Assembly (NCBI GenBank): GCA_963541805.1 | Contig: CAUTVF010000002.1 | Location: 1-36,800, forward strand | Direction of reading: 5' to 3' | Length of the DNA: 36,800 bases | From: an uncultured Alphaproteobacteria bacterium | Lineage (GTDB): Bacteria; Pseudomonadota; Alphaproteobacteria; Rs-D84; CASDRH01 | Shown: positions 211 through 36,065 of the stretch, in pieces | Position numbering within the stretch: the first letter of the stretch is position 1 | How the letters are laid out: each line of letters opens with the position of its first letter | Program-made: the position numbers and the translations under genes | Notes under the pieces: model-generated | The model's database searches: none | What the model was told of the DNA's origin: nothing | What the model saw: the letters and a program-made list of their open reading frames with translations, nothing else

Positions 211-280
211 AAGTCGTAAATTTTTGATTTTTTAAATTTTTACGATTTTTAACCGAAGGTTTAGATTCGTGATTTTCAAA

Positions 281-348
281 GCACCATACCGGATTTTTTT
301 TGTTTTATTATATAATATATAATAAAATAAATTTAAATTCCGGCACGC
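281..348. repeat. core long palindrome (GCACCATACCGGA, AT stem-loop, TCCGGCACGC), copy 1
   Basis: Flanked by further inverted arms from 241 to 385 (tacgatttttaaccgaaggtt ... aaccgaaggttaaaatacg). Confidence 0.7.
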
Positions 349-2595: not shown

Positions 2596-3204
2596 TTAAA
2601 TATACAAAGTATCAGCATACAAATCTTTTCCAGTCAATATCGCATATTTTGATTTCGCCAAAACATTTTTATTTTTTATTATATTATATAATTCATAAAA
2701 ATTTTTAAAAGATTTATAATTATCAAAATTCATATTACAAGCAATTACATTAAAATTAATTGATTTATATGAATCTAAAAACGCTTCAAGTTTATGAAAG
2801 TTTGAATCAGTAACAATTATTAAATATTCTATATTTTTATAATTAAAAAATTGACAAAAATCCAAATCAATTGAACAGTGATAATTTATTTTATCAAATT
2901 TATTAACAAATTGTGGATATCTTTTTAAAAATGTTCCATTTGTATTAAGCTCTAAATTTGAATCTTTAATTTTAAATATTGATTTCCACTGAGCTTCAGT
3001 AAGCAATCCGGGCTCTCCGCCACTTAAAATAATTTTAAAATCCTTATATTTTTCAATATTTTGTAAAACTAAATTAAAATCAATCGGCTCTCTACAATGA
3101 GTATTTTCAGCGCAATAATAGCAATTCCAGTTACATTCAAATGTTACTTTTATTTCAACTTGCTTAATTTTTGAAAAATTGCCGTCGGCAAAATGAGTCA
3201 GCAT
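2596..3204 (-). CDS. radical SAM protein (small, single-cluster type)
   Basis: CxxxCxxC cluster motif CNWNCYYC and SAM-binding GGEPGL motif. Overlaps the upstream radical SAM gene by 7 nt. Confidence 0.85.
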   Translation of the reverse strand: MLTHFADGNFSKIKQVEIKVTFECNWNCYYCAENTHCREPIDFNLVLQNIEKYKDFKIILSGGEPGLLTEAQWKSIFKIKDSNLELNTNGTFLKRYPQFVNKFDKINYHCSIDLDFCQFFNYKNIEYLIIVTDSNFHKLEAFLDSYKSINFNVIACNMNFDNYKSFKNFYELYNIIKNKNVLAKSKYAILTGKDLYADTLYI

Positions 3205-4079
3205 AAAAAGCTTCTTTTAAATTCAGCATAGCACAGCAAATTACATTTACTCGTGTCACACGCAATTTTGTTTCTTGCTGAAATTTTGTATTTATAATCA
3301 GTATTTAAATCAGCTAAAACCGTAAAATCCTTACAAGACCAAAATAATTGTAATTTTTCGTCAATATCAAATCCATCTGGCTCGCAAATACATTTTTTAC
3401 CTTGGAGATTTAATAATTTTTTAATATATTCGGATTGCGAAACTAATTTTGAATTTATATAAAATTCATCAACATTCAAATTTCTTTTAACTCTATCCAT
3501 ACTAAAATTTTCAAATATAAAATTCATAACTTCCTTATATTTTTCAGTTCCAACAAGTTGGGACAGTGGAGAAATATTTAATTCACCATTTATTAATTTT
3601 GCAATTTGTTTATATTGATCTAAATATGGAATAATATTTTCAATCCTATCAATTGGTAAATTCATATTTACAACACCGTCCCACGAATTTAAAAAATTAA
3701 ACGTCTTTTCAAAATTAAAATATTTAATATGAGGACTAATCGTTACAATTATTTTTGGATTTTTAATTATTTTTTCTAAGTTTGATGTATTTGTAATAAT
3801 TTCGACGACTTTAATATTATCGACTTCGCAAAGTCTTTGGAGTTCCAAATCAAAATCTTTTATTAATGTTGGCTCTCCGCCAAGAATTGCAATAAGAAAA
3901 GTGAATTCGGAATTAAATTTTACAAAATCAATTATTCTATCGAAATAATAATGAGTATCAAAATATTTTTTATTCAATCTTGATTTCGCAAAACAATATG
4001 AACAATTATAATTACAAAACATACTAGGATATATGTCAAGTGAAAAATCAATCGGATTTTTTGCTTCAAATACTGTCAT
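3198..4079 (-). CDS. radical SAM protein with Cys-rich C-terminal (SPASM/twitch-like) extension
   Basis: CNYNCSYC motif and GGEPTL motif. The C-terminus carries seven Cys (KKCICEP, WSCKD, CDTSKCNLLC). The start overlaps the polB-N stop (ATGA). Confidence 0.85.
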   Translation of the reverse strand: MTVFEAKNPIDFSLDIYPSMFCNYNCSYCFAKSRLNKKYFDTHYYFDRIIDFVKFNSEFTFLIAILGGEPTLIKDFDLELQRLCEVDNIKVVEIITNTSNLEKIIKNPKIIVTISPHIKYFNFEKTFNFLNSWDGVVNMNLPIDRIENIIPYLDQYKQIAKLINGELNISPLSQLVGTEKYKEVMNFIFENFSMDRVKRNLNVDEFYINSKLVSQSEYIKKLLNLQGKKCICEPDGFDIDEKLQLFWSCKDFTVLADLNTDYKYKISARNKIACDTSKCNLLCYAEFKRSFLC

Positions 4080-5695
4080 ATAAGTTTTCTAGATTCCAAT
4101 TCTTTTTTAATTTCTGCCGCTTTATTGCGATGTCCAAGCATTTTCAATTTATATCTTTTTCTATTGTTGAAACCGGCTTCAATTAATTCTGGAATAATAC
4201 CTTTTTTTGATTTATCAAAATGTGTTCCAAATAGCGATCCGCATAAATTATACTTTTGCAGCAATTTCGAATATTTATCAAATCTATGAGTATCCTTGAA
4301 ATATTCATTAATGTGATATAATTCGTCTTCGCTTAAATTTAGATTTTGGATTTCCAATTGCAAATCTTTTGGCAAATCTTTGAATTCCACTAATGTTTCT
4401 GGACTAATATTAAATGCCATAATTTGAGATGGATACATACTATTGACATCAAGAGAAAAGCCATAATTACATTTTCCTTTTATTGGATCCATTACAAATC
4501 CGCCTTTTAATTGAATACCAGAAGTATCCTCTGCCTTCATATCATACGATGGTAATATTTGTTTTTTGAGATACGCAGAATTGGCAATATATTGAGCCCA
4601 CGGCATAACAGTTTTTACAGTATCTTTAATATTAACTCCGTAAATTTCTGCCATATTTGTCATTGTATTAAAAATACTCAATTTTAATTCTATTTTATTT
4701 AATATATATACATCAATAATTGCGTAATGAATAAACCATTTATTGCATATTTTAGATATTTCAGCTTCTGATTTTGCATTATATAATTCAAGTTCAAAAG
4801 CTCCCGTTGGCTTAGAATCTGGTCTAATATATCCAGAACCTGTTCGAAATCCGTCGAAAGTTTTGAAACAGTCGTGATTTACTTTTTTAAGTCCGACCTC
4901 GACTTCTGCAATATTGTCGAGAGAATACGAACTTTTTGGCTCAAAATTAAAGTTTTTATAAACTTTCATATAATCAATATACGAAATACCTGGTGAATCA
5001 ACTTCAAAAATTCCTTGATTTAAAACTAATTCATTTAATTTTGATTCTCCATAAGGACTAAAATTAAGTGGAATTCCAAGTTTTGTTGCTCTTGCAAATA
5101 GATATCCGAAGTCAAACCCTTCTCCGTTATATGCAGAAATTATAGCTGGATTTAATGTTTTTATTAGCTTAAAAAATGCAAGAATTAATTCGGCTTCTGA
5201 ATTTAATTTAAAATATTTTAATTTAAAATCAAATACTTCTCCATTAAATGTATAATTACCAGATTCGGATTCCGTATAATCAATTCCTTTGATAAAATCA
5301 GTTAAACTAAAAACAATTACAGTATTTGTTTTTGAATCATAAATCTGGATACATACAATAGTTTCAGGGAATGATTTAGTATCGACGGATCTTTTTGCGG
5401 TTGTTTCAATATCAAGAAACCAATATCTTGGAGATTTGTTATAATTTTTTTGCCAATAAAAATCGCGAATATAACAAAGATCCGGTTTATAATTACCATA
5501 AACTGGTAAATCAGTTTTTTTAGTAATGCGTCGAAGTTTAATTTCAGGATTTAAAAAATATGTAAAATCACCTGAAATGTCCTCAACATACCGTTCATTA
5601 AAGCTTGGAATTTTCTTTATTTTTGATTGATTTCCGTCAAAATATCTTATATAATAATCATAACCAATTCTAAAACTATTTTCAAATGCTTCCAT
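4076..5695 (-). CDS. gp43: family-B DNA polymerase, N-terminal fragment (3'-5' exonuclease domain, motif A, first half of fingers)
   Basis: ExoI FLDIETT, ExoII YNGEGFDFGYL, ExoIII YAIIDVY and Pol motif A LDVNSMYPSQI are present. The ORF ends before motif B. Confidence 0.9.
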   Translation of the reverse strand: MEAFENSFRIGYDYYIRYFDGNQSKIKKIPSFNERYVEDISGDFTYFLNPEIKLRRITKKTDLPVYGNYKPDLCYIRDFYWQKNYNKSPRYWFLDIETTAKRSVDTKSFPETIVCIQIYDSKTNTVIVFSLTDFIKGIDYTESESGNYTFNGEVFDFKLKYFKLNSEAELILAFFKLIKTLNPAIISAYNGEGFDFGYLFARATKLGIPLNFSPYGESKLNELVLNQGIFEVDSPGISYIDYMKVYKNFNFEPKSSYSLDNIAEVEVGLKKVNHDCFKTFDGFRTGSGYIRPDSKPTGAFELELYNAKSEAEISKICNKWFIHYAIIDVYILNKIELKLSIFNTMTNMAEIYGVNIKDTVKTVMPWAQYIANSAYLKKQILPSYDMKAEDTSGIQLKGGFVMDPIKGKCNYGFSLDVNSMYPSQIMAFNISPETLVEFKDLPKDLQLEIQNLNLSEDELYHINEYFKDTHRFDKYSKLLQKYNLCGSLFGTHFDKSKKGIIPELIEAGFNNRKRYKLKMLGHRNKAAEIKKELESRKLI

Positions 5696-6828: not shown

Positions 6829-7266
6829 TTAATAAATCACAATATAATCATTTTTTGAGACTTGAATTGTTTTGAAATCCTTGAAATCGTCTAGCTTATC
6901 CGCCTTACAATGATACCAAACATCGCGTTTATGAGCATTATAAAATTCGGAATCGAACTCAAACCATTTCTTTCCAAACAATTCAACAACTTTACCAAAC
7001 TTACAAAAATTAGGATCAAATCCAAAATTGCGTTTTAGATACGCAAGCGGGAGTAGTCGACTAAAATCTGTAAAATCGGTAATTTTATGTTTAAATGGAT
7101 TTTGGACACAGTCAAAAAATCTGCAATTACCAATTTTGATTACTAGTCCAGCGTCCTCAAAATCCGGATTCTTTTTAAATGCCATAATAAGCCAATTTTT
7201 TGTAACATTTAATTTTTTTTGCGCTTCGTCAATATAAACGAAGTTTGAGTTTATAAACATACTCAT
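6829..7266 (-). CDS. hypothetical protein, possible N-terminal helix-turn-helix; first gene behind a promoter cassette
   Basis: 145-aa ORF with SD AAAGGA. The N-terminal segment VYIDEAQKKLNVTKNWLIMAFKKN looks like an excisionase/MerR-type HTH. Confidence 0.5.
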   Translation of the reverse strand: MSMFINSNFVYIDEAQKKLNVTKNWLIMAFKKNPDFEDAGLVIKIGNCRFFDCVQNPFKHKITDFTDFSRLLPLAYLKRNFGFDPNFCKFGKVVELFGKKWFEFDSEFYNAHKRDVWYHCKADKLDDFKDFKTIQVSKNDYIVIY

Positions 7267-7323
7267 TTAAATCCTTTCTTTTTTATTAGAATTATATAAT
7301 ATTAAAACTGAAATTTCACGTAA
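7267..7323 (-). promoter_or_regulatory. conserved promoter and leader cassette (GTGAAA, 17 nt, TATAAT, SD GAAAGGA), copy 1
   Basis: Minus-sense sequence: ttacgtgaaatttcagttttaatattatataattctaataaaaaagaaaggatttaaATG. The -10 box is at 7291-7296. Confidence 0.5.
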
Positions 7324-7346: not shown

Positions 7347-7381
7347 GTAGACGTAGTGCCTCTAAGATTTAGTTTGATCCC
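7347..7381 (-). promoter_or_regulatory. 34-nt conserved upstream motif, copy A (80 nt upstream of ATG 7266)
   Basis: Plus-strand spelling: gtagacgtagtgcctctaagatttagtttgatcc. Confidence 0.6.
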
Positions 7382-7482
7382 TTTTGATTTAATTATAATA
7401 TATTAAAGTTTACTAATTTTATGCATAAGCATATTTTTAGTATTTTAATTTGCGATTTTAAAAATGCAAAATTTTACACCTA

Positions 7483-7498: not shown

Positions 7499-7583
7499 AA
7501 ATTGTAATTTTTTGAATTTTTTAAACCGAGATTTTAATTTTTTTACGAATTTTAACCGAAGGTTTGGATTCGTTATTTTAAGA

Positions 7584-7649
7584 GCGCCATACCAGAATTT
7601 TTTGTTTTATTATATAATATATAATAAAATGAATTTAATTTCCGGCTGC
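7584..7649. repeat. core long palindrome, copy 2
   Basis: gcgccataccagaatttttt...tatataatatataataaaa...tttccggctgc. Confidence 0.7.
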
Positions 7650-10436: not shown

Positions 10437-10505
10437 TTAGAAAACATAAAAACTAAAAATAAGCAGCGCCGCTAAACAAACAAATAAAAGATTCGGCTCA
10501 AGCAT
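10437..10505 (-). CDS. 22-aa hydrophobic micro-protein; not in the ORF track
   Basis: My translation: MLEPNLLFVCLAALLIFSFYVF. SD AAGGAT overlaps the stop of the preceding micro-ORF. Confidence 0.35.
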   Translation of the reverse strand: MLEPNLLFVCLAALLIFSFYVF

Positions 10506-10507
10506 TG

Positions 10508-10585
10508 TTAATCCTTTGATGCAGTATAAATTGTAAATAAAACGACAAAAAATGTGCAAATAATTGCAATAGAATTTGTATCCAT
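10508..10585 (-). CDS. 25-aa hydrophobic micro-protein; first ORF behind a promoter cassette; not in the ORF track
   Basis: My translation: MDTNSIAIICTFFVVLFTIYTASKD. SD GAAAGGAT lies upstream, with a TATAAT box and the 34-nt motif further upstream. Confidence 0.35.
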   Translation of the reverse strand: MDTNSIAIICTFFVVLFTIYTASKD

Positions 10586-10664: not shown

Positions 10665-10699
10665 GTAGACGTAGTGCCTCCAAGATTTAGTTTGATCCC
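10665..10699 (-). promoter_or_regulatory. 34-nt conserved upstream motif, copy B (79 nt upstream of ATG 10585)
   Basis: gtagacgtagtgcctccaagatttagtttgatcc. Confidence 0.6.
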
Positions 10700-10932
10700 T
10701 TTTGAATATTTATTATATTCAAAAAAAGTTTACTTAATTTTATGCCTCGCATTATAAAAGTTAATTTTTTGATTTTTAATTTGGGATTTATAAAAATGCA
10801 AAATTTTACTAATTTTATACTAAAGTATAATTTGAGTAATTTTTTGATTTTTAATACAAGTTTGAATTTTTAAATGGATTTTGATTTTTTTTACGGAATT
10901 TAAACGGAGATTTTAAGTGCGTAATTTTTAGA

Positions 10933-11002
10933 GCACCATACTAGAAATTTTTATTTTATTATATAAATTTATATAATAAAATAAATTTAATTTCCGGTCG
11001 CC
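10933..11002. repeat. core long palindrome, copy 3
   Basis: gcaccatactagaaattttt...atataaatttatataataaaa...tttccggtcgcc. Confidence 0.7.
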
Positions 11003-18712: not shown

Positions 18713-18746
18713 GTAGACGTAATGCCTCTTGAATTTAGTTTGATCC
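18713..18746 (-). promoter_or_regulatory. 34-nt conserved upstream motif, copy C (54 nt upstream of ATG 18658)
   Basis: gtagacgtaatgcctcttgaatttagtttgatcc. Confidence 0.6.
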
Positions 18747-18892
18747 TTTTTAATATTTATATTTTATAATATTTTAGTTTACATTTTTTAAAAAATTACT
18801 AATTTTATGCTTCGTATTATAAAAGTAAATTTTTGATTTTTTGATTTTAATACGATTTTTAACCTACGGTTAATAAATTTGCAATTTTAAGC

Positions 18893-18961
18893 GCACCATA
18901 CCAGAAAATTTATTTTTATTATAATAATATTATAATAAAATAAATTTAAATTCCGGTTCGC
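18893..18961. repeat. core long palindrome, copy 4, flanked by ~43-nt inverted arms (18851-19008)
   Basis: gcaccataccagaaaattt...ataataatattataataaaa...ttccggttcgc. Arms: tacgatttttaacctacggtta... and ...aaccttcggttaaaaatcgta. Confidence 0.7.
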
Positions 18962-19115
18962 TTAAAAATTACGAATCTAAACCTTCGGTTAAAAATCGTA
19001 AAATTTTGTATTTTATAAAATCTCGATTACAAAATTATAAAAAATTCAAAATCTTAATCATTTTACATCCAAATGTTAAATTATTAATTTTTTGCAACTT
19101 TAATATGATATAATT

Positions 19116-19149
19116 GGATCAAACTAAATTCAAGAGGCACTACGTTTAC
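19116..19149 (+). promoter_or_regulatory. 34-nt conserved upstream motif, copy D, inverted (56 nt upstream of ATG 19206)
   Basis: ggatcaaactaaattcaagaggcactacgtttac, the reverse complement of the other copies. It faces the plus-strand spike gene. Confidence 0.6.
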
Positions 19150-19181: not shown

Positions 19182-19189
19182 TATAAATA
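19182..19189 (+). promoter_or_regulatory. T4-type late promoter box TATAAATA upstream of the spike gene
   Basis: Exact TATAAATA, 16 nt before ATG 19206. Confidence 0.5.
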
Positions 19190-19205: not shown

Positions 19206-20192
19206 ATGTCAAATAAATCAGAATCTCAATTTCATCCATCCGGTCGATTGCTTCGCGGATTTGTTGTCGCAAATAATGATCCAAAGCATCAAGGCAGAGT
19301 CCAAGTCAGAATCCCAGAGCTCCACGGATTTGATTCAAATGCTTTAAATTCAGAAACTCAAGGAAATTCTACTGGTAATTATAAAGTTTTTGAAACTGAT
19401 TCAACAAATTCAAATTCAAACAAATCAGATTTCATAGAAACAGCAAATTTGCCGTGGGCACAAGTTCTGATGCCAATGGACTTTATTGGATTTCAAAAAG
19501 CTCCACAAGACGCAAAAGAAATTAAATCAGAAAAATTATCAGGAACTGAAAAAAATACTGAATTATATAGATCAATTTCGAGAGAGGGTGAAAGACGAGG
19601 GGGTTTTGGTAAGAATATTGTTTTAAATCCCGGAACATATGTTTGGATTCAGCAACTCGGAGGATCTGATAATGATTTGCTAGTTCTTGGAACATATGCA
19701 TCAGAAAATGAATTCTCAAATCTCACAAAACCAACCGGAGAAAATCCATCAAATAGCTGTGTCTATGATTCAATAACTGGTCATTATTATACTTTTGATG
19801 ACGCAACTGGAGATATCTTAATCCACAATAGATCGGGAACTCAATTCAGATGGGATTCAAACGGCAATTCATATAATGATGTTGTTGCAAATAAAAATAC
19901 TTCGGTTCAGGGCAACGAGATTTATCACATTGATGGATCAAATACTTTTAGAATCGGATCAACAAATACTGGCCTCGTTGAGGCAGATCAAAATATTACA
20001 GTAAAAGCAAATGATACTTTAAATGTTGAAAGCAATCAAAACGTTACAATTAAAGGCAATAAAACTGATAAAATATCCGGGAGTGAGAATATTGAAGTTT
20101 CTGGATCTACTACAATAAAAACGGGAGGTTCCCGAAATGATAATACTTCAGGAACCCATAAAATAACCGCTTCTGTGATTTATTTAAATTAA
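19206..20192 (+). CDS. baseplate central spike, gp5/VgrG-like (OB-fold N-domain plus C-terminal beta-helix, no lysozyme domain seen)
   Basis: GFVVANNDPKHQGRVQVRIPELHG (gp5 OB-domain signature). The C-terminal repeats are beta-helix-like: VQGNEIYHIDGSNTFRIGS..ITVKANDTLNVESNQNVTIKGNKTDKISGSENIEVSGSTTIKTGG. Confidence 0.75.
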   Translation: MSNKSESQFHPSGRLLRGFVVANNDPKHQGRVQVRIPELHGFDSNALNSETQGNSTGNYKVFETDSTNSNSNKSDFIETANLPWAQVLMPMDFIGFQKAPQDAKEIKSEKLSGTEKNTELYRSISREGERRGGFGKNIVLNPGTYVWIQQLGGSDNDLLVLGTYASENEFSNLTKPTGENPSNSCVYDSITGHYYTFDDATGDILIHNRSGTQFRWDSNGNSYNDVVANKNTSVQGNEIYHIDGSNTFRIGSTNTGLVEADQNITVKANDTLNVESNQNVTIKGNKTDKISGSENIEVSGSTTIKTGGSRNDNTSGTHKITASVIYLN

Positions 20193-20676: not shown

Positions 20677-21252
20677 TTAAATATATAAATGATTATAAAT
20701 TAATTTTTTTATAAGCAAATCGGTAACTTTATTTCTAGTTTCAGAATCTAATCGCTCACTTACATAATAATGAACTATTTCGTTTTCAAGAAAACTGAAC
20801 TTAAATGGGTGATCGTGAATCTCCGTTAATTTTGTTGATCCAAATACAGTAAAATCAACTCTTTCTAATTTTGAATCATTAACATCTGCAGAACATCTGC
20901 AAAATGAAACTTTATCTAAATTACAAACTTCTTTTACAAACGGTTCCAGTAAATTTCTAAATTTAAAATCAATTTTAAATAAATCCTTTAGAAACTTTTC
21001 AGCAACTTCTCGATCGACTCCAATAAAAACATATTGCTCAGAATCATCATTACCATATATAGTAAAAGTATCGTTCGATGTTCGCGAAAATGCGCGAAAA
21101 ATTCCCCCAGATATGACGTGTTCGGAACGTTCGGTTCGTTTTGTTTCGAACTTATTTGAATAGCAATAAAATATGTGTAAATTACATACTTCAAGATCAT
21201 AAGAATCGGCAGCTTCAACAACTGTGGAATTAATCAATTTTTGTAAATACAT
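20677..21252 (-). CDS. hypothetical protein; first gene behind a promoter cassette
   Basis: 191-aa ORF with SD GAAAGGAT and the conserved leader. Confidence 0.55.
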   Translation of the reverse strand: MYLQKLINSTVVEAADSYDLEVCNLHIFYCYSNKFETKRTERSEHVISGGIFRAFSRTSNDTFTIYGNDDSEQYVFIGVDREVAEKFLKDLFKIDFKFRNLLEPFVKEVCNLDKVSFCRCSADVNDSKLERVDFTVFGSTKLTEIHDHPFKFSFLENEIVHYYVSERLDSETRNKVTDLLIKKLIYNHLYI

Positions 21253-21309
21253 TTTACATCCTTTCTTTTTATTAGAATTATATAATTTTTAAACTGAATT
21301 TTCACGTAA
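21253..21309 (-). promoter_or_regulatory. conserved promoter and leader cassette, copy 2
   Basis: Minus-sense sequence: ttacgtgaaaattcagtttaaaaattatataattctaataaaaagaaaggatgtaaaATG. The -10 box is at 21277-21282. Confidence 0.5.
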
Positions 21310-21341: not shown

Positions 21342-21375
21342 GTAGACGTAATGCCTCCAAGATTTAGTTTGATCC
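21342..21375 (-). promoter_or_regulatory. 34-nt conserved upstream motif, copy E (89 nt upstream of ATG 21252)
   Basis: gtagacgtaatgcctccaagatttagtttgatcc. Confidence 0.6.
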
Positions 21376-21470
21376 TAATTATATCATATCAAGGTTTACT
21401 AATTTTATGCTTCGCATTATAAAAGTTAATTTTTTGAATTTTTTGTCAACGAATACAAAAAATTAATAAT

Positions 21471-21519: not shown

Positions 21520-21600
21520 TTTATAAAAAATTTTTGTTTGTATATATAAATTTATATAATAAAAATTTTTTATGGTGCTGCAAATAAACCTACGGTTAAG
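21520..21600. repeat. degenerate, inverted copy of the core palindrome module
   Basis: tatatataaatttatataataaaaattttttatggtgctgc...aacctacggtt. GGTGC is on the opposite strand relative to the other copies. Confidence 0.45.
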
Positions 21601-23816: not shown

Positions 23817-24119
23817 TTACTCGACAACAGTTAGTTCAAGAGTTTTTACAATCTCGGACTTCTCATAACCATCCGCAGATACCTCAAATGTTAATTTGTT
23901 GTCATTTGCGTGATTAAATGCAGTATAGTGGCCTGGAGTTCCAAGAAGCTCAAACTTTAGAACAATATTATCAGCTGTTGAGCTAGCATCCTTTGAAATT
24001 TTTAGCAAAGTATCAATATTTGAACCTTTGTATTCAACTTTTGCATTTGCTGGAACTTTATCAGAAACTGCACATTTCAACTTATCTCCGTGTCTTAGAT
24101 CAAACTTATAGTCTGCCAT
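23817..24119 (-). CDS. small Ig-like-domain protein
   Basis: The block TFEVSADGYEKSEIVKTLELTV parallels the domain ends of neighbouring ORFs. TAATG coupling to the upstream gene; own SD AAAGGA. Confidence 0.55.
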   Translation of the reverse strand: MADYKFDLRHGDKLKCAVSDKVPANAKVEYKGSNIDTLLKISKDASSTADNIVLKFELLGTPGHYTAFNHANDNKLTFEVSADGYEKSEIVKTLELTVVE

Positions 24120-25726
24120 TATGAATCCTTTTTAATTGTTATTTTTGCGGTTGCTTTATTTGGGATCTTCGATAGATCAACTTTTGCTGTTGCTTTGTTT
24201 ATTTTTTCAATATTTACATTCGCAGTTGCTTTATTTAGAACTTTAGAAATCTCGATATTTGCACTAGCTGGAGGAGTAAATAATTCTAATTTAACTTTTG
24301 CTGAAGCTTTTTTAATTGCAGAAATCTCGATATTTGCGGTTGCTTTTTTAGCTTCTTTTGTTATATCAATTTTAGCAGTTGCTTTATTTGGAACTTTAGA
24401 AATTTCGATATTTGCAGTTGCTTTTTCAAGTTTCTTTTCTTTAATTACAATTGTATTAGTTACTTCAGTTGGTGAATACCCGTCTTTAGAAATTGTAATT
24501 TTTATTTTCGAAACTCCAACTTTTTTACCAGTAATTCGTTTATTTACTGTGTCAACTTCAATATTTTCAGAACCTTCAATTACTTCTACTTTTGCAATTG
24601 CGTCTGCCGGAGTATATTCAAGTGTAAAATCTTTGAATTCATCGACTTTAATTTCAGATGGAATTACAATATTTGAATTAATTACTGGTAAACTATGAAT
24701 TTCTAAATCTTTTGAAACTGTATTTGGTCGGTATCCAGATTTTTTAGCAGTTACAAGTAAATTAGAAATACCAACTCGGCTTGGAGTTATAGTTCCTTTA
24801 ACAAATTTACCATCTTCTTTGCTAGTTATAACAAATCCAAGAGTATTTGTAGAATCAGTTACTGTTATTTCACCTGAACTAAAAATTGCTACATTATATG
24901 TTTTACCAATTTGTAAATTAGACTCGTTTTCCACAGTTGCTGATAAATCAACAGTTTCAATATCAGCAATTTTAAATTCTGTTGTAAAAACAGAAGTTCT
25001 AAAATTGTCTGCAGAAGCTTCAAATGTTAATTTTACAGAATCTGTTGGCTTAATAAGCTCAATTGCTTTTGAATTTGGATATAGTGTTACTGAATCATTG
25101 CTTGCAGAAACTGTTACCTTAATATCTTTTGGCGCTACAGGACTAATTTTATAAGTTAGCATATTGCCGACTTTAAAATTATTCTCAATTTCATCGCCTT
25201 CAATTTTAACAGTAAAATCAACTGCTGGAACATAATCAGGATTTGATTTTTCGACCATAACATTTGATACGTCGAGAACATCATAAGTTGTTGAGCCAGA
25301 AGTTGAAATAGAAATTACATCACCATTTTTAAACTTATCAGTCGGCTCAAAAAATAATGATGCTCCATTTGATTCAACATATTTAACATCTAATTTTGTT
25401 CTTGTATTATCAAGTTGGTGAACAGAATCCCAGAAAACCGGACTTATTGAAGTTAATGCACCATTTAAGTCGCCTGCGCGAGATACATATATTGCACCAG
25501 AATATTGCAAATAATTATAAACTTGATACCAGTCGTTATAATTATCTTTATTAGGGCCTCCGAAAATATCCTCAAGTTCTTGGGTCGTTGAAATTTTAGT
25601 CCAAGCACCTATTGCGCCTTTTTCGAAGTTTCCGGCAAATACAGCATCCGAATCGCCTGAGCTAACTGTTACTGGAGATTTATCAACTTCAGAAACGAGG
25701 ACACCGGGAGATAGGAGAGTTGCCAT
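24119..25726 (-). CDS. gp18: tail sheath N-terminal segment (gp18 residues ~1-95) fused to Ig-like domains and a C-terminal 8x peptide repeat
   Basis: MATLLSPGVLVSEVDKS...AVFAGNFEKG...ELEDIFGGP...NYLQYSGAIYVSRA is colinear with T4 gp18 MTLLSPGIELKETTVQS...ALAGKFQWG...NTFGQP...NFLQYGNDLRVVRA. Repeated domain ends follow: SGYRPNTVSKDLEI and DGYSPTEVTNTIVI. Confidence 0.75.
   Translation of the reverse strand: MATLLSPGVLVSEVDKSPVTVSSGDSDAVFAGNFEKGAIGAWTKISTTQELEDIFGGPNKDNYNDWYQVYNYLQYSGAIYVSRAGDLNGALTSISPVFWDSVHQLDNTRTKLDVKYVESNGASLFFEPTDKFKNGDVISISTSGSTTYDVLDVSNVMVEKSNPDYVPAVDFTVKIEGDEIENNFKVGNMLTYKISPVAPKDIKVTVSASNDSVTLYPNSKAIELIKPTDSVKLTFEASADNFRTSVFTTEFKIADIETVDLSATVENESNLQIGKTYNVAIFSSGEITVTDSTNTLGFVITSKEDGKFVKGTITPSRVGISNLLVTAKKSGYRPNTVSKDLEIHSLPVINSNIVIPSEIKVDEFKDFTLEYTPADAIAKVEVIEGSENIEVDTVNKRITGKKVGVSKIKITISKDGYSPTEVTNTIVIKEKKLEKATANIEISKVPNKATAKIDITKEAKKATANIEISAIKKASAKVKLELFTPPASANIEISKVLNKATANVNIEKINKATAKVDLSKIPNKATAKITIKKDS
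24122..24424 (-). repeat. in-frame tandem repeat encoding eight 12-14-aa units (consensus KATA[NK][IV][ED]I[ST]K[VI]PN) at the C-terminus of the 535-aa sheath-N ORF
   Basis: The eight units are KATANIEISKVPN, KATAKIDITKEAK, KATANIEISAIK, KASAKVKLELFTPP, ASANIEISKVLN, KATANVNIEKIN, KATAKVDLSKIPN and KATAKITIKKDS. The DNA units recur as agaaatytcgatatttgcrgttgcttt. Confidence 0.8.
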
Positions 25727-25913
25727 TTAAATCCTTTCATAAAATTAGAGAGCATAGTTAAATAGCAAGTATTAGGAATTTTATGGAAGATAACCCTCAA
25801 AATTGAAAAATTAAAACCTTGCTAGTTCTAATATGCTTATCTTACAATTATTTATATTTTTGAAATTTAAAATTGTCAATTTAAAAATAAATAATAACAA
25901 AAGAGATTTGTCA

Positions 25914-28075: not shown

Positions 28076-29134
28076 TTACCATAAATCCTCTAAATTATCA
28101 GTATTTGCTCTCAAATCATATCCAAGAGGCTCAATCATTAACTCAAGTGGAACTAAAAAGAATTTTTCAAAATTCAAATCGAAATCAATAAAATCTCTAA
28201 ATTGATTTGCAAATGTATCGGAATCAAACATAAAAATATTTGATTTAAGTGGATTTGGCTCTCTCAGATACAACATTTTATATTTTGATCCGAGTTCCAA
28301 TTTTTGAAATCTTTCGGGATTTGCATCAATATATTGATTTGTAACCAAGAAAGCTCTTGAATTAATTGGAATTGCCTTTGAAGTTTTTAAATCATAATTA
28401 TCTTTTGTTACACTGCTAACTTTTGCAATACTTGATAACGGTTGAGCCAAATAGATTTTTCTAACTTCTGCTAACCAATTTTTAATTGCATTTAAATCGG
28501 CTTTCATTAATATTTTTACAGCTTCTGAAAGATATTTTCTACAAAAACTCGGCGTCGAACTTCTAATAATATCGAGGCCGTGGACTTTTATTTTTGGCGG
28601 ATCATACCGAGTTCCTTCATCATCAAGCACTGCAATTGCATATCTTTTTTTAGCAACAAATATTGCATTTTCAAAAATTGCTTCGCGCTTTGTTACTAAT
28701 TTTCCTTTGCTAAATGCATTAAAAATATATTCAACAATTTCAGAACTTTTGTTAACAATTGGTTGAAATACACCCTCTACAATTTTATCAAGCGAATCAA
28801 CATTGTATTCAATTGGTAATTTTTTTGGGAATTCGAAATATCCGGAATCAGTATCAGCATATCGTCTATATCCATAATTCGGATTTTTGTCAATTTCTTT
28901 GCATTTTGAATCAATCAAATTTCCAAATAAATTGACATAAAACCGAGAATTGGAAGTTATTGCGCAAGCTATAATCATTTTATTAAGTAAAAATCCTGGA
29001 TTTGCAAGAGCACCATAAAGCGCATTAATCATAACTTTATATGCAAATTGCATATTATCATATGAGTCTGCAAGATCCAATTCTTGGTGATATAAATCAA
29101 GAAGTTCAGAATCTGAAAGTTCGTTTATTTCCAT
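28076..29134 (-). CDS. gp43: family-B DNA polymerase, C-terminal fragment (second half of fingers, palm motif C, thumb)
   Basis: Motif B KVMINALYGAL, motif C YADTDSGYF, and KKRYA. Confidence 0.9.
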   Translation of the reverse strand: MEINELSDSELLDLYHQELDLADSYDNMQFAYKVMINALYGALANPGFLLNKMIIACAITSNSRFYVNLFGNLIDSKCKEIDKNPNYGYRRYADTDSGYFEFPKKLPIEYNVDSLDKIVEGVFQPIVNKSSEIVEYIFNAFSKGKLVTKREAIFENAIFVAKKRYAIAVLDDEGTRYDPPKIKVHGLDIIRSSTPSFCRKYLSEAVKILMKADLNAIKNWLAEVRKIYLAQPLSSIAKVSSVTKDNYDLKTSKAIPINSRAFLVTNQYIDANPERFQKLELGSKYKMLYLREPNPLKSNIFMFDSDTFANQFRDFIDFDLNFEKFFLVPLELMIEPLGYDLRANTDNLEDLW

Positions 29135-29451: not shown

Positions 29452-29655
29452 CTAATGTGTTAAAATTCTTACAAATCCAATTTCTGGATTTTTGAATTTT
29501 TCTAAAATCTTGAGAAATAATTCGTAAATTTCCGAATCGGAATTTCTTGCTTTTACTAAATAATCAAAGCAAGTATTTATTGTCAAATCAAAAACGCAAT
29601 CCGTATCCAAAATGAATTTTTCAAGTTTTGGATTATATGGAATGTATGCAATCAT
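29452..29655 (-). CDS. hypothetical small protein; first gene behind a promoter cassette
   Basis: 67-aa ORF with the conserved leader and SD GAAAGGA. Stop codon is TAG. Confidence 0.5.
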   Translation of the reverse strand: MIAYIPYNPKLEKFILDTDCVFDLTINTCFDYLVKARNSDSEIYELFLKILEKFKNPEIGFVRILTH

Positions 29656-29715
29656 TAGTGAAGTCCTTTCTTTTTTATTAAGATTATATAATATTAAAAC
29701 TGAAATTTCACGTAA
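29656..29715 (-). promoter_or_regulatory. conserved promoter and leader cassette, copy 3
   Basis: Minus-sense sequence: ttacgtgaaatttcagttttaatattatataatcttaataaaaaagaaaggacttcactaATG. The -10 box is at 29683-29688. Confidence 0.5.
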
Positions 29716-29737: not shown

Positions 29738-29772
29738 GTAGACGTAGTGCCTCTAAGATTTAGTTTGATCCC
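29738..29772 (-). promoter_or_regulatory. 34-nt conserved upstream motif, copy F (82 nt upstream of ATG 29655)
   Basis: gtagacgtagtgcctctaagatttagtttgatcc, identical to copy A. Confidence 0.6.
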
Positions 29773-29910
29773 TTTTGATATTTATAATTTTATAATATTT
29801 TAGTTGACATTTTTTAAATTTCAAAAACTAACTTTTATAATGCGAAGCATAAAATTAGTAATTTTTTGATTTTTAGAGCAGATTTTGCATTTGTAAAATC
29901 AAACAATAAA

Positions 29911-29933: not shown

Positions 29934-30530
29934 GTGAGCAATAAAATTGAAGAAATAAAAAGAGTTCTTCACGGCGGCTCAAAAGCAACTAAATATATGG
30001 TATCCTTTAGTTTTCCAACAGAAGTTGCACATAATTTTGAGATAGCCGAAATGAACTGCTTAGCAAAAGCAACCTCGTTTCCGGGTAAGAGTATTGGTCA
30101 AATTGAAGTTTATAATCAAGGTCGAAAAATTCCAATTCCTGGAGACACAGCATATGATTCCACCTGGACAGTTACTTTTTATGTTGATCAGGCGCACAAA
30201 ATCCGAAAAGATTTCTTAAATTGGATGAAATCAATTGATAATTTTCAAGCAAATACACATAGCGGTAGGCCTGAAAATTTATTTGTAAGAATGTCTGTTT
30301 CGCAACTCGATAGTCTTGAAAAAGAAGTTGCAAAATATACACTTCTTGATGTATGGCCTCAGGGTGTTGGTGAAATTTCGCTTGGTGCCGGAGATTTAGA
30401 TACAATTCTTGAATTCGAAGTAACATTTAGTCTTTCAAGCTGGATTATTGAAGCACAAAATGGAACTGAGTTTGACTCGCCGCTTGATGGCCGTGTTCAT
30501 TCAACAAATACTGTTGCTCCAGATCAATAA
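29934..30530 (+). CDS. gp19: tail tube protein (T4 gp19 family), GTG start
   Basis: CLAKATSFPGKSIG vs T4 CKATALPAGIV; WTVTFYVDQAH vs WTVTVMNDEAH; VWPQGVGEISL...EFEVTFSLSSW vs LWPTNVGELQL...TFEVTLALDYW. A TATAAATA box lies 15 nt upstream. Confidence 0.9.
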   Translation: MSNKIEEIKRVLHGGSKATKYMVSFSFPTEVAHNFEIAEMNCLAKATSFPGKSIGQIEVYNQGRKIPIPGDTAYDSTWTVTFYVDQAHKIRKDFLNWMKSIDNFQANTHSGRPENLFVRMSVSQLDSLEKEVAKYTLLDVWPQGVGEISLGAGDLDTILEFEVTFSLSSWIIEAQNGTEFDSPLDGRVHSTNTVAPDQ

Positions 30531-31201: not shown

Positions 31202-31209
31202 ATTCCAAA

Positions 31210-31234
31210 AATCCCTCTAGATTTTAGAGGGATT
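31210..31234 (+). terminator. stem-loop after the scaffold-like gene
   Basis: AATCCCTCTA-gattt-TAGAGGGATT starts 9 nt after stop 31201. The trailing T-run is weak. Confidence 0.45.
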
Positions 31235-31258
31235 CTAAATCTTATTTAATTTTATATT

Positions 31259-31318
31259 AAAAATCAAAAAATTACTAATTTTATGCTTATGCATTATAAA
31301 AGTTAATTTTTGATTTTT
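31259..31318. repeat. second hairpin family (AAAAATCAAAAAATTACTAATTTTATGC, loop, GCATTATAAAAGTTAATTTTTGATTTTT)
   Basis: Related copies lie at about 7404-7430, 10729-10777, 10804-10852, 18796-18845 and 21396-21440. Inverted copies lie at 11022-11056 and 29833-29878. Confidence 0.6.
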
Positions 31319-31379
31319 AAAATGGATTTTGATTTTTTTACGGAATTTAAACGGAGATTTTGAATTCGTAATTTTAAGA

Positions 31380-31450
31380 GCACCATACCAGAAAATTTTA
31401 TTTGTTTATTATATAATATATAATAAAATAAATTTATTTTCCAGCCGGCT
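31380..31450. repeat. core long palindrome, copy 5
   Basis: gcaccataccagaaaatttt...tatataatatataataaaa...ttttccagccggct. Confidence 0.7.
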
Positions 31451-31470
31451 TCAAAAAATTAGCCGCAGGC

Positions 31471-31509
31471 TTGAATTTTGAAATTTTGAAATTTTGAAAT
31501 ATTGAAATC
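31471..31509. repeat. short tandem octamer repeat (GAAATTTT-like, about 4.5 copies) between the helicase stop and its hairpin
   Basis: ttgaattttgaaattttgaaattttgaaatattgaaatc. Confidence 0.6.
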
Positions 31510-33915
31510 TTAAAAAGCAAATGAGATTTTAATTCGATTTAAAATATCACTTAAAAAATCAATTTTTGAATATTTCTTATTTGAAGCAAGTTCAACCAGA
31601 TTAATCATTTTATCAAATTCAAAAGTTTCATCATTATATGCATTTTTAAATATGTTTTCAATTTTAACAAATAAGTTTGTTAAAACTAAATCTTTATTTC
31701 CGCTTTTTATGAAGTCATTATGATATCGATTAAAATCTGCTTTTGTATGGATTTTACAAAGCAACTTAAGATTTCTAAGTATTTTTAAATCATATTTTAA
31801 AATTTCTTTTATTAAATCTAAATCATTTGCAATTGTTAAATCAGTCAAATTATAAATTAAATCACATTCTAAATTTGATAAATTTTCAATAAAATTAGTT
31901 TCTTTTACTGATTTCGAAATAAATTGAAATGGCTTAGATTCAAGCATAATTGGAGTTTTTTCAAAATTTGATTTAACAAAATAATCAAATGATTTTTTAT
32001 AATTAACAAATAACAGATTCTTAAAAATCTCATTTTTTATTTTAAATTTGCCAATTTCGGAGATTTCAACTTCTCCATAATTATTTGTTTTAGTTAAAAT
32101 TGGATATTTTGCCTCAATATATGAATTTCTAATACTGTCATAATCAATTGGATCATATCTTTTTGTGCATTTTACATAGTATATAATCTTACTAACTTTG
32201 CGAGATCTTCTGAGCATTTGAACACTTTGGATTGGATCAACTGAATTTCCACAATCATAGTGAAAGTGATAATCAATCAAATTCATATTTGAAATACCGA
32301 CCGTAATTGTTGGACTATATAGTAAAACATCAAAATAATCTTGTTCCAGTAATTCAAGTAAACTCAAATAAAAATCTCTTAATAAATTTGGCGTTTTTGC
32401 AGTTATTGTAATGACTCGGAGTCCTTGGCTTTTAAGAAACTTTTCAATTATTTCAAGTGTTTTTAAAGCAGTCACGGAGACTGAACATTTTGATTTACTT
32501 GAAATTGCACTCAAATAATAAAAAAAGGTATTAGAATCTGGAGCTTCAAATAAATCCGCAGAGTCTTTTTTAACATTAATAACATTTAACTTATTTGGAT
32601 TTTGGATTAAATTAATGCTATAACTATTTAAAAAAGCATCGGCAATAATAAGTCTTTTTTGAAATGATTTATAAACAAACTCCAAATTATTCAGCTTATT
32701 TGTCAAATTATCAACCGAATGATTCATTAAACTAACAAATTCATCAATTATGACAACATCAAAATTATTGATATCATATTTAAAAAGACTATCATATTGA
32801 CATATTAGTGAATCTCCGATTTCATAATTAAAATCAGAGTATAGTTTTATATTAAATTTTGTATGATAATCAAATGCTATTGACCTTCTATTAGTGACTA
32901 TTAAAACTCGTAAATCTGAATCAAATGATTTTTCAATTATTTTTTTAATTAATAATGTTTTACCTGATCCCATAAAACTTTTAAGAGTTAAAACACCGGA
33001 TTTTTTAAATAGAAATTTTTCAATCAATTCTTTATGTTCATTTCCAGAAAAATCCATTGTATCAACTTCAAGACCTTCGTAATCTGAAAATATACTTGAA
33101 ATATCATAATTTTGAAAAAATTGCTTTTTAATAAAATTCCAAATATTTAATGAATTCAGCCTATTTTTATGATTCATAATATATGGATTATCATAATACC
33201 ATATATAATTTGAATCTCCATTGAATTCATATTTTATATAATTATCACCAAATTCATAAGCAATATATCCAAGATTTTTAAAAGTTTCTTGGCACATATC
33301 AATTGTATTTTTAGATATTAATTTAAATTGAATATCGGGTGATTCTGTTAATTCATATATTTTTATATTTGATTTAGGGTATTTTTTTCCAGACTCATTA
33401 TTGAATAGTATTTCCGACTTATTAATTGCAGCCGTAAAATAAGAATATCTGAGGACATCTTCATTATAATATCCTGAATTTTTTAAATCAAATTGAATCT
33501 TTGCTTGGATTTGTTTTGCTTCCTTTAGATTGCAAGATTCAATAAATAAAATACCTTTTATATTGAAGTTATCAATACCGTTGAAGCTCCTAGATTCTCC
33601 AATGATACATTTAAAATCTTTGAAATATTCAATAATTGAATTAAGATTATTTTTTGATGTAATATCAAAATCTAATAAAATATATTCAAAAGTTTGAGTG
33701 CTAAATGGCTCTAATTCTTTCTTTTTTCTATAAGTTTTAATTGGATTTTTAATATTTAGCGGAATATTAAGAATAAAATGATTTACAAGAAACTGAAATG
33801 CTTGTAAATTAGAATCAACAATAACATTTTTAAAAATAAAGGAGAAGTCCTCAAAATTGCTTTGAGGGTATTTTAAATCCGTATTTTTTACATCAAAATA
33901 TGTTATTGTTGTCAT
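31510..33915 (-). CDS. SF2-type helicase with a ~300-aa unassigned N-terminal region
   Basis: Walker A MGSGKTLL, Walker B VVIIDEFVS, motif V-like SPTITVGIS, motif VI-like QMLRRSRK. Confidence 0.75.
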   Translation of the reverse strand: MTTITYFDVKNTDLKYPQSNFEDFSFIFKNVIVDSNLQAFQFLVNHFILNIPLNIKNPIKTYRKKKELEPFSTQTFEYILLDFDITSKNNLNSIIEYFKDFKCIIGESRSFNGIDNFNIKGILFIESCNLKEAKQIQAKIQFDLKNSGYYNEDVLRYSYFTAAINKSEILFNNESGKKYPKSNIKIYELTESPDIQFKLISKNTIDMCQETFKNLGYIAYEFGDNYIKYEFNGDSNYIWYYDNPYIMNHKNRLNSLNIWNFIKKQFFQNYDISSIFSDYEGLEVDTMDFSGNEHKELIEKFLFKKSGVLTLKSFMGSGKTLLIKKIIEKSFDSDLRVLIVTNRRSIAFDYHTKFNIKLYSDFNYEIGDSLICQYDSLFKYDINNFDVVIIDEFVSLMNHSVDNLTNKLNNLEFVYKSFQKRLIIADAFLNSYSINLIQNPNKLNVINVKKDSADLFEAPDSNTFFYYLSAISSKSKCSVSVTALKTLEIIEKFLKSQGLRVITITAKTPNLLRDFYLSLLELLEQDYFDVLLYSPTITVGISNMNLIDYHFHYDCGNSVDPIQSVQMLRRSRKVSKIIYYVKCTKRYDPIDYDSIRNSYIEAKYPILTKTNNYGEVEISEIGKFKIKNEIFKNLLFVNYKKSFDYFVKSNFEKTPIMLESKPFQFISKSVKETNFIENLSNLECDLIYNLTDLTIANDLDLIKEILKYDLKILRNLKLLCKIHTKADFNRYHNDFIKSGNKDLVLTNLFVKIENIFKNAYNDETFEFDKMINLVELASNKKYSKIDFLSDILNRIKISFAF

Positions 33916-34100
33916 TTGAATATTATATTATAATTTAGTTTAAGTATTTAAAAAATCAAAATTCAAGCCTTCGGCTAAATTTTTGTATATATAAATTTAT
34001 ATATACAAACAAAAAATTTTTATAATTGGCTCAAAAAATACGAACGCAAGCCTACGGCTAAAATTTTGATATTAAATAAAAAAATTATATAGTTTTAGAA

Positions 34101-35408: not shown

Positions 35409-36065
35409 TTAAGCATCATAAATTGTAGGGTCTGGAATTCCGGAATCTCTAAATGCTTCTTTGCGCTCGACGCAAGTTCCGCATTTTCCGCAATGAAAAT
35501 CACCGCCTTTATAGCAGCTATATGTCAATGAATAATCCACTTTTAATTTAGATCCAAGTCTAACAATATCAGTTTTATTAATATTACAAAATGGGCTGGC
35601 TACTTTGATATGTTTATTTGTTCCAACTTTTATTGCTTTTTTCATACTTGAAATGAATTCGCGCGTTGTATCTGGATAACAAAAATGATCACCGCTGTGA
35701 TTCCCCAATATAATTACATCGCAATCTTTGCTCTCCGCAAAACCTGCTGCAATTGAAATCATAATTCCATTTCTAAATGGAACAACTGTCGATTTCATAT
35801 TTTCTGCGGCATAATGTCCCTCAGGAATTTCACCTTGATCCTTTAACAAATCTGATTTAAAATAATCGTGAATAAAATCTAAATTAATACAAGTATTTTT
35901 AATTCCTAATTTTTCACAAGTTTTTAATGCATAACTATGTTCAATTTCATTGTGTTTTGATCCATATATAAAACTAAGTGTTTCGACATTTTTATATTTC
36001 TTAAGTGCCCAATATACCGCAGTAGTTGAATCGAGTCCTCCGCTAAAAATTACAAGTGCCTTCAT
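35409..36065 (-). CDS. queC: 7-cyano-7-deazaguanine synthase QueC
   Basis: PP-loop VIFSGGLDSTT and C-terminal zinc motif SCY..HCGKCGTCVERKEAF. Length 218 aa. Confidence 0.9.
   Translation of the reverse strand: MKALVIFSGGLDSTTAVYWALKKYKNVETLSFIYGSKHNEIEHSYALKTCEKLGIKNTCINLDFIHDYFKSDLLKDQGEIPEGHYAAENMKSTVVPFRNGIMISIAAGFAESKDCDVIILGNHSGDHFCYPDTTREFISSMKKAIKVGTNKHIKVASPFCNINKTDIVRLGSKLKVDYSLTYSCYKGGDFHCGKCGTCVERKEAFRDSGIPDPTIYDA

Follow-up and report, generated by a model that had tools for sequence, protein, structure and literature searches.

What is a nearly invariant block of 34 nucleotides (nt) doing just ahead of one phage operon after another? The question is raised by a 36,800-nt stretch of contig CAUTVF010000002.1 (hereafter the window), in which an earlier reading of the letters alone (the sequence-only reading) had pointed out repeated copies of such a motif, among them one at 29738, and had taken it for a protein recognition site. 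Our analysis showed that this motif, hereafter the 34-mer, is a real, lineage-specific, and oriented 34-bp element within intergenic cassettes like the PeSL cassettes of T4-type phages: a phage intergenic regulatory repeat with an unusual conserved core. In the T4-like cassettes known before, conservation falls on ordinary promoter and hairpin signals; in the present ones, the most conserved part is a block of 34 bases that lacks structure and does not look like a promoter. Its place at the predicted transcription starts of both early and late operons points to a regulatory layer undescribed for this phage group.

Copies, conservation, and orientation of the 34-mer

Scanning both strands with the degenerate 34-mer recovered exactly six sites in the window at 0 mismatches, compared to 0 matches in 100 dinucleotide-preserving shuffles and 0 expected by chance. 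A profile hidden Markov model of 22 sequence variants returned the same six sites (E <= 3e-11), with the next match at E = 3. Thus, this profile finds no degenerate extra copies in the window, and neither half of the 34-mer stands alone anywhere in it. The number of copies and their strands agree with the sequence-only reading, although its end coordinates 7381, 10699, and 29772 run one base too long for a 34-nt motif. The start codons that it named and the gaps of 54-89 nt leading to them were borne out, and the motif scan likewise bore out the absence of the 34-mer from the two cassettes between convergent gene ends (187-385 and 31202-31509). The copies and their targets are as follows:

7347..7380, minus strand: copy 1, GGATCAAACTAAAT-CTTA-GAGGCACTACGTCTAC in gene sense; ATG at 7266, 80 nt downstream, of an operon whose last gene is the N-terminal half of the DNA polymerase
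10665..10698, minus strand: copy 2, central CTTG; ATG at 10585, 79 nt downstream, of a 25-amino-acid (aa) hydrophobic peptide, followed by small open reading frames (ORFs)
18713..18746, minus strand: copy 3, central TCAA, C25T; ATG at 18658, 54 nt downstream, of a polysaccharide-deacetylase-like gene, followed by baseplate genes
19116..19149, plus strand: copy 4, the sole plus-strand copy of the window, central TCAA, C31T; ATG at 19206, 56 nt downstream, of the gp5-like baseplate hub/lysozyme
21342..21375, minus strand: copy 5, central CTTG, C25T; ATG at 21252, 89 nt downstream, of a 191-aa protein of unknown function
29738..29771, minus strand: copy 6, the copy singled out at the start, central CTTA; ATG at 29655, 82 nt downstream, of a 67-aa ORF, followed by a 101-aa ORF and the C-terminal half of the DNA polymerase

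The window has a GC content of about 27% and a T4-like myovirus gene set. Its structural proteins include a tail sheath, baseplate proteins, a gp5-like hub, and gp23-like and gp19-like proteins, and it also encodes a helicase, a family-B DNA polymerase in two genes, QueC, and radical-SAM enzymes. The tail sheath is 62% identical to that of the Campylobacter Firehammervirus phages (CP220, CPt10, and IBB_35), and neither the window nor its divergent intergenic region has a DNA-level match among 50,697 phage records (megablast and blastn). On these two grounds, we take the window to come from an uncultured, distant relative of the Eucampyvirinae. Of the genome, which measures about 160 kb, our annotation covers about 37 kb, or roughly a quarter.

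Beyond the window, a scan of sequence collections with the motif pattern matched 20 metagenome contigs and one IMG/VR contig; the same pattern had no match among 185,579 bacterial and archaeal species, each represented by one genome (GTDB representatives). Through homologous proteins, we reached close relatives with 95-99% protein identity: L001, L002, L010, and L011, of which L011 is 21.8 kb long and part of a contig of 160,222 bp. Altogether, the 34-mer is represented by 43 copies in 26 sequences, 37 of them from 25 metagenomic contigs, which amount to 40 unique contexts and 22 sequence variants; these copies are not independent, being related by descent and exchange. Neither the first 50 kb of CP220 nor a relative with 54% identity (L033) nor more distant loci (L003-L008) contain the 34-mer, which indicates that it is specific to this lineage; an analogous long motif was not seen in L033 either. 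Many of the metagenome contigs stop 16-28 nt upstream of the 34-mer, and we interpret these ends as assembly breaks at the repeat rather than transcript ends.

Among the 40 unique contexts, positions 1-14 (GGATCAAACTAAAT) are 93-100% conserved and positions 19-34 (GAGGCACTACGTCTAC) 82-100% conserved, with G19, A20, G22, C28, G29, T30, and T32 invariant and C9 and A27 among those that vary. Between the two blocks lies a variable island of 4 nt (positions 15-18) limited to Y-Y-N-R, with TCAA, CTTA, CTTG, CTCA, CCCA, CCTG, TCCG, and a few others as its alleles. The edges of conservation are sharp, dropping after position 34-37 and before about -7, with a weaker TCAAAAG just 5' of G1 in most copies. 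The 34-mer is also the relatively GC-rich part beside the promoter box described below. A family of copies downstream of the tail sheath in the relatives keeps block 1-14 with a diverged second block (GATGYTATTCGTATRC), while in the copy L031:103 it is the first block that is degraded and the second that is kept.

Folding yielded no stable RNA structure for the 34-mer (minimum free energy of -0.3 to -2.8 kcal/mol; z-scores of -1.2 to +0.7), and its variable positions show neither covariation nor compensatory pairing, as the sequence-only reading had held in arguing against an RNA structure. No Rfam family reached its gathering threshold, and even at E <= 5 the cassettes had no match; no tRNA or transfer-messenger RNA matches were found either. 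Dyad symmetry is also absent, with block 1-14 (GGATCAAACTAAAT) unrelated to the reverse complement of block 19-34 (GTAGACGTAGTGCCTC). Taken together, these observations rule out, for the 34-mer, chance as well as a folded RNA, membership in a known RNA family, and any operator or recombinase core with symmetry. A literature search with the motif strings found no mention of it.

All contexts of the 34-mer, in the window as well as in the relatives, are intergenic, and a same-strand gene starts 3-113 nt downstream in 39 of the 40. Random orientation among further copies, which the sequence-only reading had named as evidence that would count against it, was not what the relatives showed: their 37 further copies are all intergenic and all but one face a same-strand start at that distance. 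The exception is a copy in contig L022 (290-323, plus strand), where a complete cassette, 34-mer included, points at the 3' end of a convergent gene (309 aa), 31 nt from its stop codon; this copy may be a driver of an antisense transcript, a relic of rearrangement, or an assembly chimera. Some operon starts in the window also have no 34-mer: those in the divergent region (25727-25832), at 29934 (plus strand), at 33915 (helicase gene), and at 17258, among others. Thus, the claim of orientation toward operon starts holds for the window and for 39 of the 40 contexts, but neither for the L022 copy nor as a rule for every operon.

The genes downstream belong to at least 17 families, in which early/middle and late functions are mixed. 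Targets beyond the operons of the window include the large terminase, the tail tube, a 1294-aa tape-measure/lysozyme-like protein, NrdD, and several unknowns. The earlier remark that the motif marks no single temporal class is thus supported: the two DNA polymerase halves and NrdD carry it, yet so do gp5, the tail tube, the terminase, and the tape-measure-like protein. In several relatives, the start codon comes only 3, 24, or 38 nt after the 34-mer without any other promoter-like element between, and those genes are therefore transcribed through or from the motif.

The gp43-like polymerase of family B is itself split within the window, its N-terminal half (4076-5695, minus strand) and its C-terminal half (28076-29134, minus strand) lying 22 kb apart, each in an operon headed by a copy of the 34-mer.

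Promoter-like boxes beside the 34-mer

Every copy of the 34-mer has a -10-type box 1-16 nt upstream, in the form of TATAAT, TGnTATAAT, or the late-type (A/T)ATAAATA, compared to only 8.7% of other intergenic positions with TATAAT or ATAAATA within 22 nt. The position of this predicted promoter (hereafter P1) relative to the 34-mer is a new point over the sequence-only reading. Six types of upstream context can be told apart. In the commonest, which includes the copy at 10665, TATAAT overlaps AATAAATA, at 13 and 8 nt before G1; in another, TGGTAAAAT is followed by AATAAATA, at 16 and 8 nt. A perfect TATAAATA, in T4 the gp55 late promoter, stands at 7-8 nt in the third type (copies 18713 and 29738), and TATAAT at 11 nt in the fourth (copy 7347). 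The remaining two have the extended -10 TGATATAAT, either ending 1-2 nt before G1 (copies 19116 and 21342) or placed at 10 nt. The boxes of the window, on both sides of the 34-mer, are as follows:

7392..7397, minus strand: P1 of copy 1, -10-like TATAAT, 11 nt before the 34-mer
10705..10717, minus strand: P1 of copy 2, TATAAT overlapping late-type AATAAATAT, 13 and 8 nt before the 34-mer, preceded by TTTTTTTG
18754..18761, minus strand: P1 of copy 3, perfect T4-late-type TATAAATA, 7 nt before the 34-mer
19106..19114, plus strand: P1 of copy 4, extended -10 TGATATAAT ending 1 nt before the 34-mer
21378..21386, minus strand: P1 of copy 5, extended -10 TGATATAAT ending 2 nt before the 34-mer
29779..29786, minus strand: P1 of copy 6, perfect T4-late-type TATAAATA, 7 nt before the 34-mer
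7291..7319, minus strand: gene-proximal promoter-like module (P2) after copy 1, GTGAAA-17-TATAAT, then the ribosome-binding site AAAGGA
21277-21305 and 29683-29711: further sites of the same P2 module
19182..19189, plus strand: late-type TATAAATA downstream of copy 4, 16 nt ahead of the gp5 ATG
2186, 9132, and 18097, minus strand, and 19182 and 29911, plus strand: late-type box (A/T)ATAAATA(A/T)T, usually followed by AAAAGGTTAA

What follows the 34-mer is modular and variable and may be a P2, a late box (gp5, tail tube, and terminase), or neither. Capsid-like, tail-tube-like, gp5, and other genes have the late-type box (A/T)ATAAATA(A/T)T about 15-21 nt ahead of their start codons, and the intergenic TATAAATA sites of the window are all in gene orientation (4/4). 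With its box at 19182..19189, the late gene gp5 therefore has its own predicted late promoter downstream of the 34-mer. On the upstream side, the predicted start falls 0-9 nt before G1 in about 32 of the 40 contexts, and in the TGATATAAT class, the 34-mer spans about -5 to +29 relative to it.

A position downstream of a -10 box fits an operator or roadblock, or a transcribed leader, and not an upstream activator site. The spacing between the 34-mer and P2, which varies from 49 to 81 nt, further argues against a phased activator site. Thus, the activator-site option offered by the sequence-only reading becomes less likely.

Readings of the 34-mer

We tentatively favor, at a little below even confidence, the reading that the 34-mer is a recognition element abutting the transcription start, read as DNA or as RNA by a factor specific to this lineage. 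It would form the invariant core of a modular promoter/leader cassette, at the start of P1 transcription, with P1 being a -10-only element (TATAAT, often overlapping the late-type box, or the extended TGnTATAAT). If transcription starts 0-9 nt before G1, then the 34 nt would be both the 5' end of the transcript and the first DNA crossed by the RNA polymerase. The sequence-reading factor would make two contacts, with block 1-14 and with block 19-34, on either side of four bases under weak constraint. In a DNA mode, it would bind the duplex as an operator or 'stoperator' roadblock, and in an RNA mode, it would bind the nascent leader or the non-template strand, which would then act as an mRNA tag or as a loading site of the nut or ops type. 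By binding, the factor would decide what becomes of the P1 transcripts at all these operons together, while the gene-proximal promoters (P2 or late boxes) would give class-specific expression. We infer the firing of P1, its start site, the trans-acting factor, and the effect of its binding from sequence patterns. The position-specific constraint upholds the earlier notion of a recognition site, but the accompanying dismissal of RNA does not stand: it rested on the absence of pairing, with which a single-stranded leader is compatible. In favor of the leader version, conservation on the left side sets in at the predicted start in about 32 of the 40 contexts, and some genes have the 34-mer as their only 5' untranslated region.

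Several points weigh against this reading. Both the activity of P1 and its start site are predicted from consensus, and matches to a generic sigma-70 pattern are no commoner than in shuffles of this 27% GC DNA. The -10 box stands at no constant distance from the motif: spacings of 1, 2, 7-8, 10, 11, 13, and 16 nt occur. In the 'TGATATAAT-T-GGATC' class, a strictly 5'-terminal RNA would lose G1-C5, yet these bases are conserved there. The information content of about 60 bits is far above the need of a single DNA-binding protein, and Pfam and PHROG scans of the window proteins found no helix-turn-helix, sigma, or RNA-binding domains. The L022 copy is the only one without a downstream same-strand gene. 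Finally, since the copies are related by descent and copy-to-copy exchange, their invariance may in part reflect concerted evolution.

A narrower version, which we consider unlikely, would have phage transcripts of every temporal class carry the 34 nt as a shared 5' tag, or would place that tag in the corresponding non-template DNA. Through it, a phage factor dedicated to this task would treat the phage transcription units apart from those of the host, either by loading an antiterminator or elongation factor (ops/nut-like) or through the protection or preferential translation of 'self' mRNA.

The version closest to the sequence-only reading, itself a sub-case of the favored one, is a duplex-DNA 'stoperator', at which a phage protein would block P1 initiation or elongation depending on orientation, with many operons silenced together. 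It is a serious candidate that we nevertheless hold to be somewhat improbable. The 34-mer is asymmetric, present in multiple copies, and always co-oriented with transcription at -5 to +43 relative to the -10 box; repression tolerates variable spacing; G1-C5 are conserved even where they lie upstream of the start; and the centers of the two blocks, about 20 bp apart, would fall on the same face of the helix. Weighed against this, a site of 34 bp, 30 of them constrained, is very long to be contacted by a single protein, no DNA-binding protein turned up among the window proteins, and the phage is of the T4-like virulent type. Moreover, the left conservation edge matches the predicted late-type start in most contexts, a match that a DNA site does not need. 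To our knowledge, global silencing has no role in T4-like virulent phages, and we know of no genome-wide leader or stoperator system in T4-like phages. A carrier state has been reported for Campylobacter phages; a stoperator network, which we consider as unlikely as the transcript tag above, could allow genome-wide silencing, a switch of the kind that could underlie such a state.

It is distinctly unlikely that the 34-mer is itself a promoter for a phage-encoded or phage-modified RNA polymerase (T7-like or phage-sigma-like), with transcription starting from position 34 or right behind it. The 34-mer does resemble the promoters of single-subunit phage polymerases in length, invariance, sharp edges, strict orientation, position 3-113 nt ahead of start codons, and presence before all gene classes, and an ATG 3-38 nt after the 34-mer is compatible with a start at the 3' edge. 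However, all six types of upstream context have a -10-type box of their own, which a self-sufficient promoter would not need, and the 34-mer has neither an AT-rich melting segment at its 3' end nor -35/-10-like spacing. The relatives are T4-like and use the host polymerase with gp55-type late boxes, such as are present here, and no RNA polymerase or sigma gene was seen among the window proteins. The ever-present -10 box, the lack of a melting segment and of -35/-10 logic, the standard late boxes, and the failure to see a polymerase or sigma gene among the window proteins together argue against a self-sufficient promoter. The 'modified RNA polymerase target' option of the sequence-only reading is likewise unsupported, the 34-mer having no -35/-10 architecture of its own and the window showing no phage RNA polymerase or extra sigma factor. 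By-eye comparisons with the consensus sequences for sigma-54 (GGCAC-N5-..GC), sigma-28, and the extracytoplasmic function (ECF) sigma factors (AAC...CGT) fail at defining positions, in that C9 and A27 vary. A very unlikely alternative is that the 34-mer serves recombination or mobility—as a site acted on by a site-specific recombinase or by a homing or nicking endonuclease, or else simply as the best-homogenized stretch of the cassette—and would drive the shuffling described below. The cassettes are indeed mosaic, with insertions, deletions, and one inversion between phages of 95-99% protein identity; the central 4-mer switches alleles at orthologous sites; and two arms around a short variable core, at a length of 34 bp, recall lox/FRT-type sites. 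Yet the arms are not inverted repeats of each other, and identical-core direct repeats occur 22 kb and 10.7 kb apart in one and the same genome, where recombination would delete essential genes. The sole inversion seen is bounded by inverted hairpin modules and not by 34-mers, no recombinase or endonuclease gene was seen in the window, and plain homogenization would leave neither a Y-Y-N-R island within invariant flanks nor sharp edges.

Other candidates were tried and rejected. By eye, the integration host factor (IHF) consensus, ops consensus, CsrA GGA motif, and lox-type symmetry also fail at defining positions. For a CRISPR-repeat relic (an RNA anti-CRISPR), the motif pattern had 0 matches in the 185,579 species genomes, at the exact level only, so that diverged repeats would be missed. 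Positions 1-10 (GGAUCAAACU) pair perfectly with the universal 16S rRNA 5' end AGUUUGAUCC (the 27F primer region), which we treat as probably due to chance because 23 of 300 shuffles reach a 10-nt run too. The GATC within the 34-mer is not special, GATC not being depleted in the window.

Among known systems, the PeSL cassettes of T4-type phages combine a sigma-70 consensus promoter with a G/C stem-loop, are repeated intergenically, are conserved over about 100 bp, form sites of indel or replacement between close relatives, and cluster around ORFans in hyperplastic regions (PMC2839356; PMC4122927). The cassettes here are likewise repeated intergenic units of a T4-like myovirus, with terminators, -10 boxes, and reshuffled modules. 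A stable terminator stem-loop is present in the cassette, although the 34-mer itself forms no stem. As candidates for a sigma-70-type early promoter, TATAAT or TGnTATAAT boxes lie by every copy and the predicted P2 follows three of the window copies, with the proviso that shuffled sequence gives generic pattern matches just as often. Between relatives of 95-99% protein identity, the intergenic regions differ by insertion, deletion, or inversion of modules. However, the invariant, unstructured, non-promoter-like 34-mer has no PeSL counterpart, and, unlike the ORFan-biased PeSLs, the cassettes here precede core genes (DNA polymerase halves, gp5, baseplate, tail tube, terminase, and NrdD). No sequence homology between the two is expected or seen. 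In the halovirus HF2, intergenic repeats of 29 and 58 bp upstream of transcription units carry an AT-rich promoter and are conserved in sequence and position across the genus, in an archaeal host (PMC8707807). These too are conserved intergenic repeats of a myovirus before transcription units; in HF2, the promoter lies inside the repeat, whereas the conserved core here adjoins the promoter box.

The closeness to other regulatory sites is also partial. The stoperators of Cluster A mycobacteriophages such as L5 are 13-bp sites in temperate phages, bound by the immunity repressor to stop the polymerase, and were reportedly described by Brown et al. in EMBO J in 1997. Like them, the 34-mer is asymmetric, occurs in many copies in short intergenic spaces, and keeps one orientation to transcription (39 of 40 co-oriented); unlike them, it is 34 bp long and sits in a T4-like phage. 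The lambda nut site (boxA/boxB), rrn boxA, and ops/JUMPstart are short elements after promoters that are read in the nascent RNA or the non-template strand. The 34-mer shares with these its conservation, its orientation dependence, and its place just downstream of a promoter, here a predicted one, at operon starts, but has no boxB-type hairpin, ops consensus, or Rfam match. The promoters of T7, T3, SP6, and K11 are about 23 bp long, with an AT-rich melting segment, and require a phage polymerase gene. They resemble the 34-mer as near-identical, asymmetric, oriented blocks before several gene classes; the 34-mer differs in having no melting segment, no polymerase gene seen among the window proteins, and a host-type -10 box that always precedes it. 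In practical terms, the 34-mer offers a one-oligonucleotide handle for finding the putative factor in an uncultured phage lineage from human-associated metagenomes.

Cassette modules and further features of the window

The long intergenic regions (280-670 nt) are mosaics of many repeat families and illustrate the shuffling of regulatory modules around one fixed core. Ahead of the 34-mer come terminator hairpins whose loops are of the UUCG type, an AT palindrome of 21 nt, a GGTATGGTGCTCTTAAAA module with a hairpin after it, ACATTTAAATGT palindromes, and an ATGC-GAA-GCAT hairpin module, and then P1 and the 34-mer. Terminator-like hairpins (e.g., TTAGCCTTCGGCTAA with a T run) at the upstream end of the cassette number 4 versus 1.0 expected per scanned region. 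At orthologous sites in relatives with 95-99% protein identity, the 34-mer is kept, with the flanking modules inserted, deleted, or inverted. The central 4-mer switches among discrete alleles at such sites, which implies exchange between copies.

Individual modules have their own distributions. In the divergent region 18860-19000, the central module (GCGCACCATACCAGAA - AT palindrome - AAATTCCGG) is inverted in L001 and L002, and the inversion is bounded by inverted hairpin modules (ACGAATnnAAACCnnnGGTT...). The module TTCTGGTATGG(T/C)GCTCTTAAAA(T)TACG with its hairpin occurs at 7573-7608, 10922-10957, 18882-18917, 31369-31404, and 270-305 (minus-strand reading), 150-250 nt upstream of the 34-mer and in both convergent cassettes as well. 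This TTCTGGTATGG(T/C)GCTCTTAAAA string and hairpin resemble the lambda nutL boxA (CGCTCTTAAAAATTAA) and boxB; what is boxA-like in these cassettes belongs to a module other than the 34-mer. AT-only palindromes of about 21 nt (TTATTATATAATATATAATAA or TATATAAATTTATATA) are found at 295-337, 7597-7639, 10949-10991, and 31396-31438, with similar ones at 21521-21569 and 33977-34025. They display TATAAT/TATAAAT on both strands, are flanked by CCGG-containing and GGTATGG modules, and are enclosed by two terminator hairpins; they may serve as promoters in both directions or as unwinding elements. Directly 3' of some 34-mers (L002 700-740, L017 151-205, and L010 1704-1740) is a module GCG(C/T)TTAATA(T/A)AACTAATTTAGAATC(T/C), sometimes as two tandem units.

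The window also codes for QueC (35409-36065, minus strand) and two radical-SAM (QueE-like) proteins (2596-3204 and 3198-4079, both minus strand), which suggest a 7-deazaguanine modification of the phage DNA, as in Firehammervirus. If the DNA is so modified, the reading of the G-containing 34-mer as DNA by a protein would be affected. The tetranucleotides CATG and GTAC are absent from the window (0 observed versus about 89-103 and 31-89 expected), which looks like strong avoidance of NlaIII/HpyI-type and RsaI-type restriction sites; ACGT (26) and CTAG (21) are depleted, unlike GATC. The first genes after the copy at 10665 are tiny hydrophobic ORFs on the minus strand, one of 25 aa (MDTNSIAIICTFFVVLFTIYTASKD; 10508-10585), which is conserved in the relative L028, and one of about 22 aa (MLEPNLLFVCLAALLIFSFYVF; about 10437-10505). 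Lastly, the gene at 24119-25726 (minus strand), whose 535-aa product matches a PHROG annotated as tail sheath, contains coding tandem-like repeats of about 39 nt and multiples thereof at 24128-24433 (GCAGTTGCTTTATTTGGAAC...).

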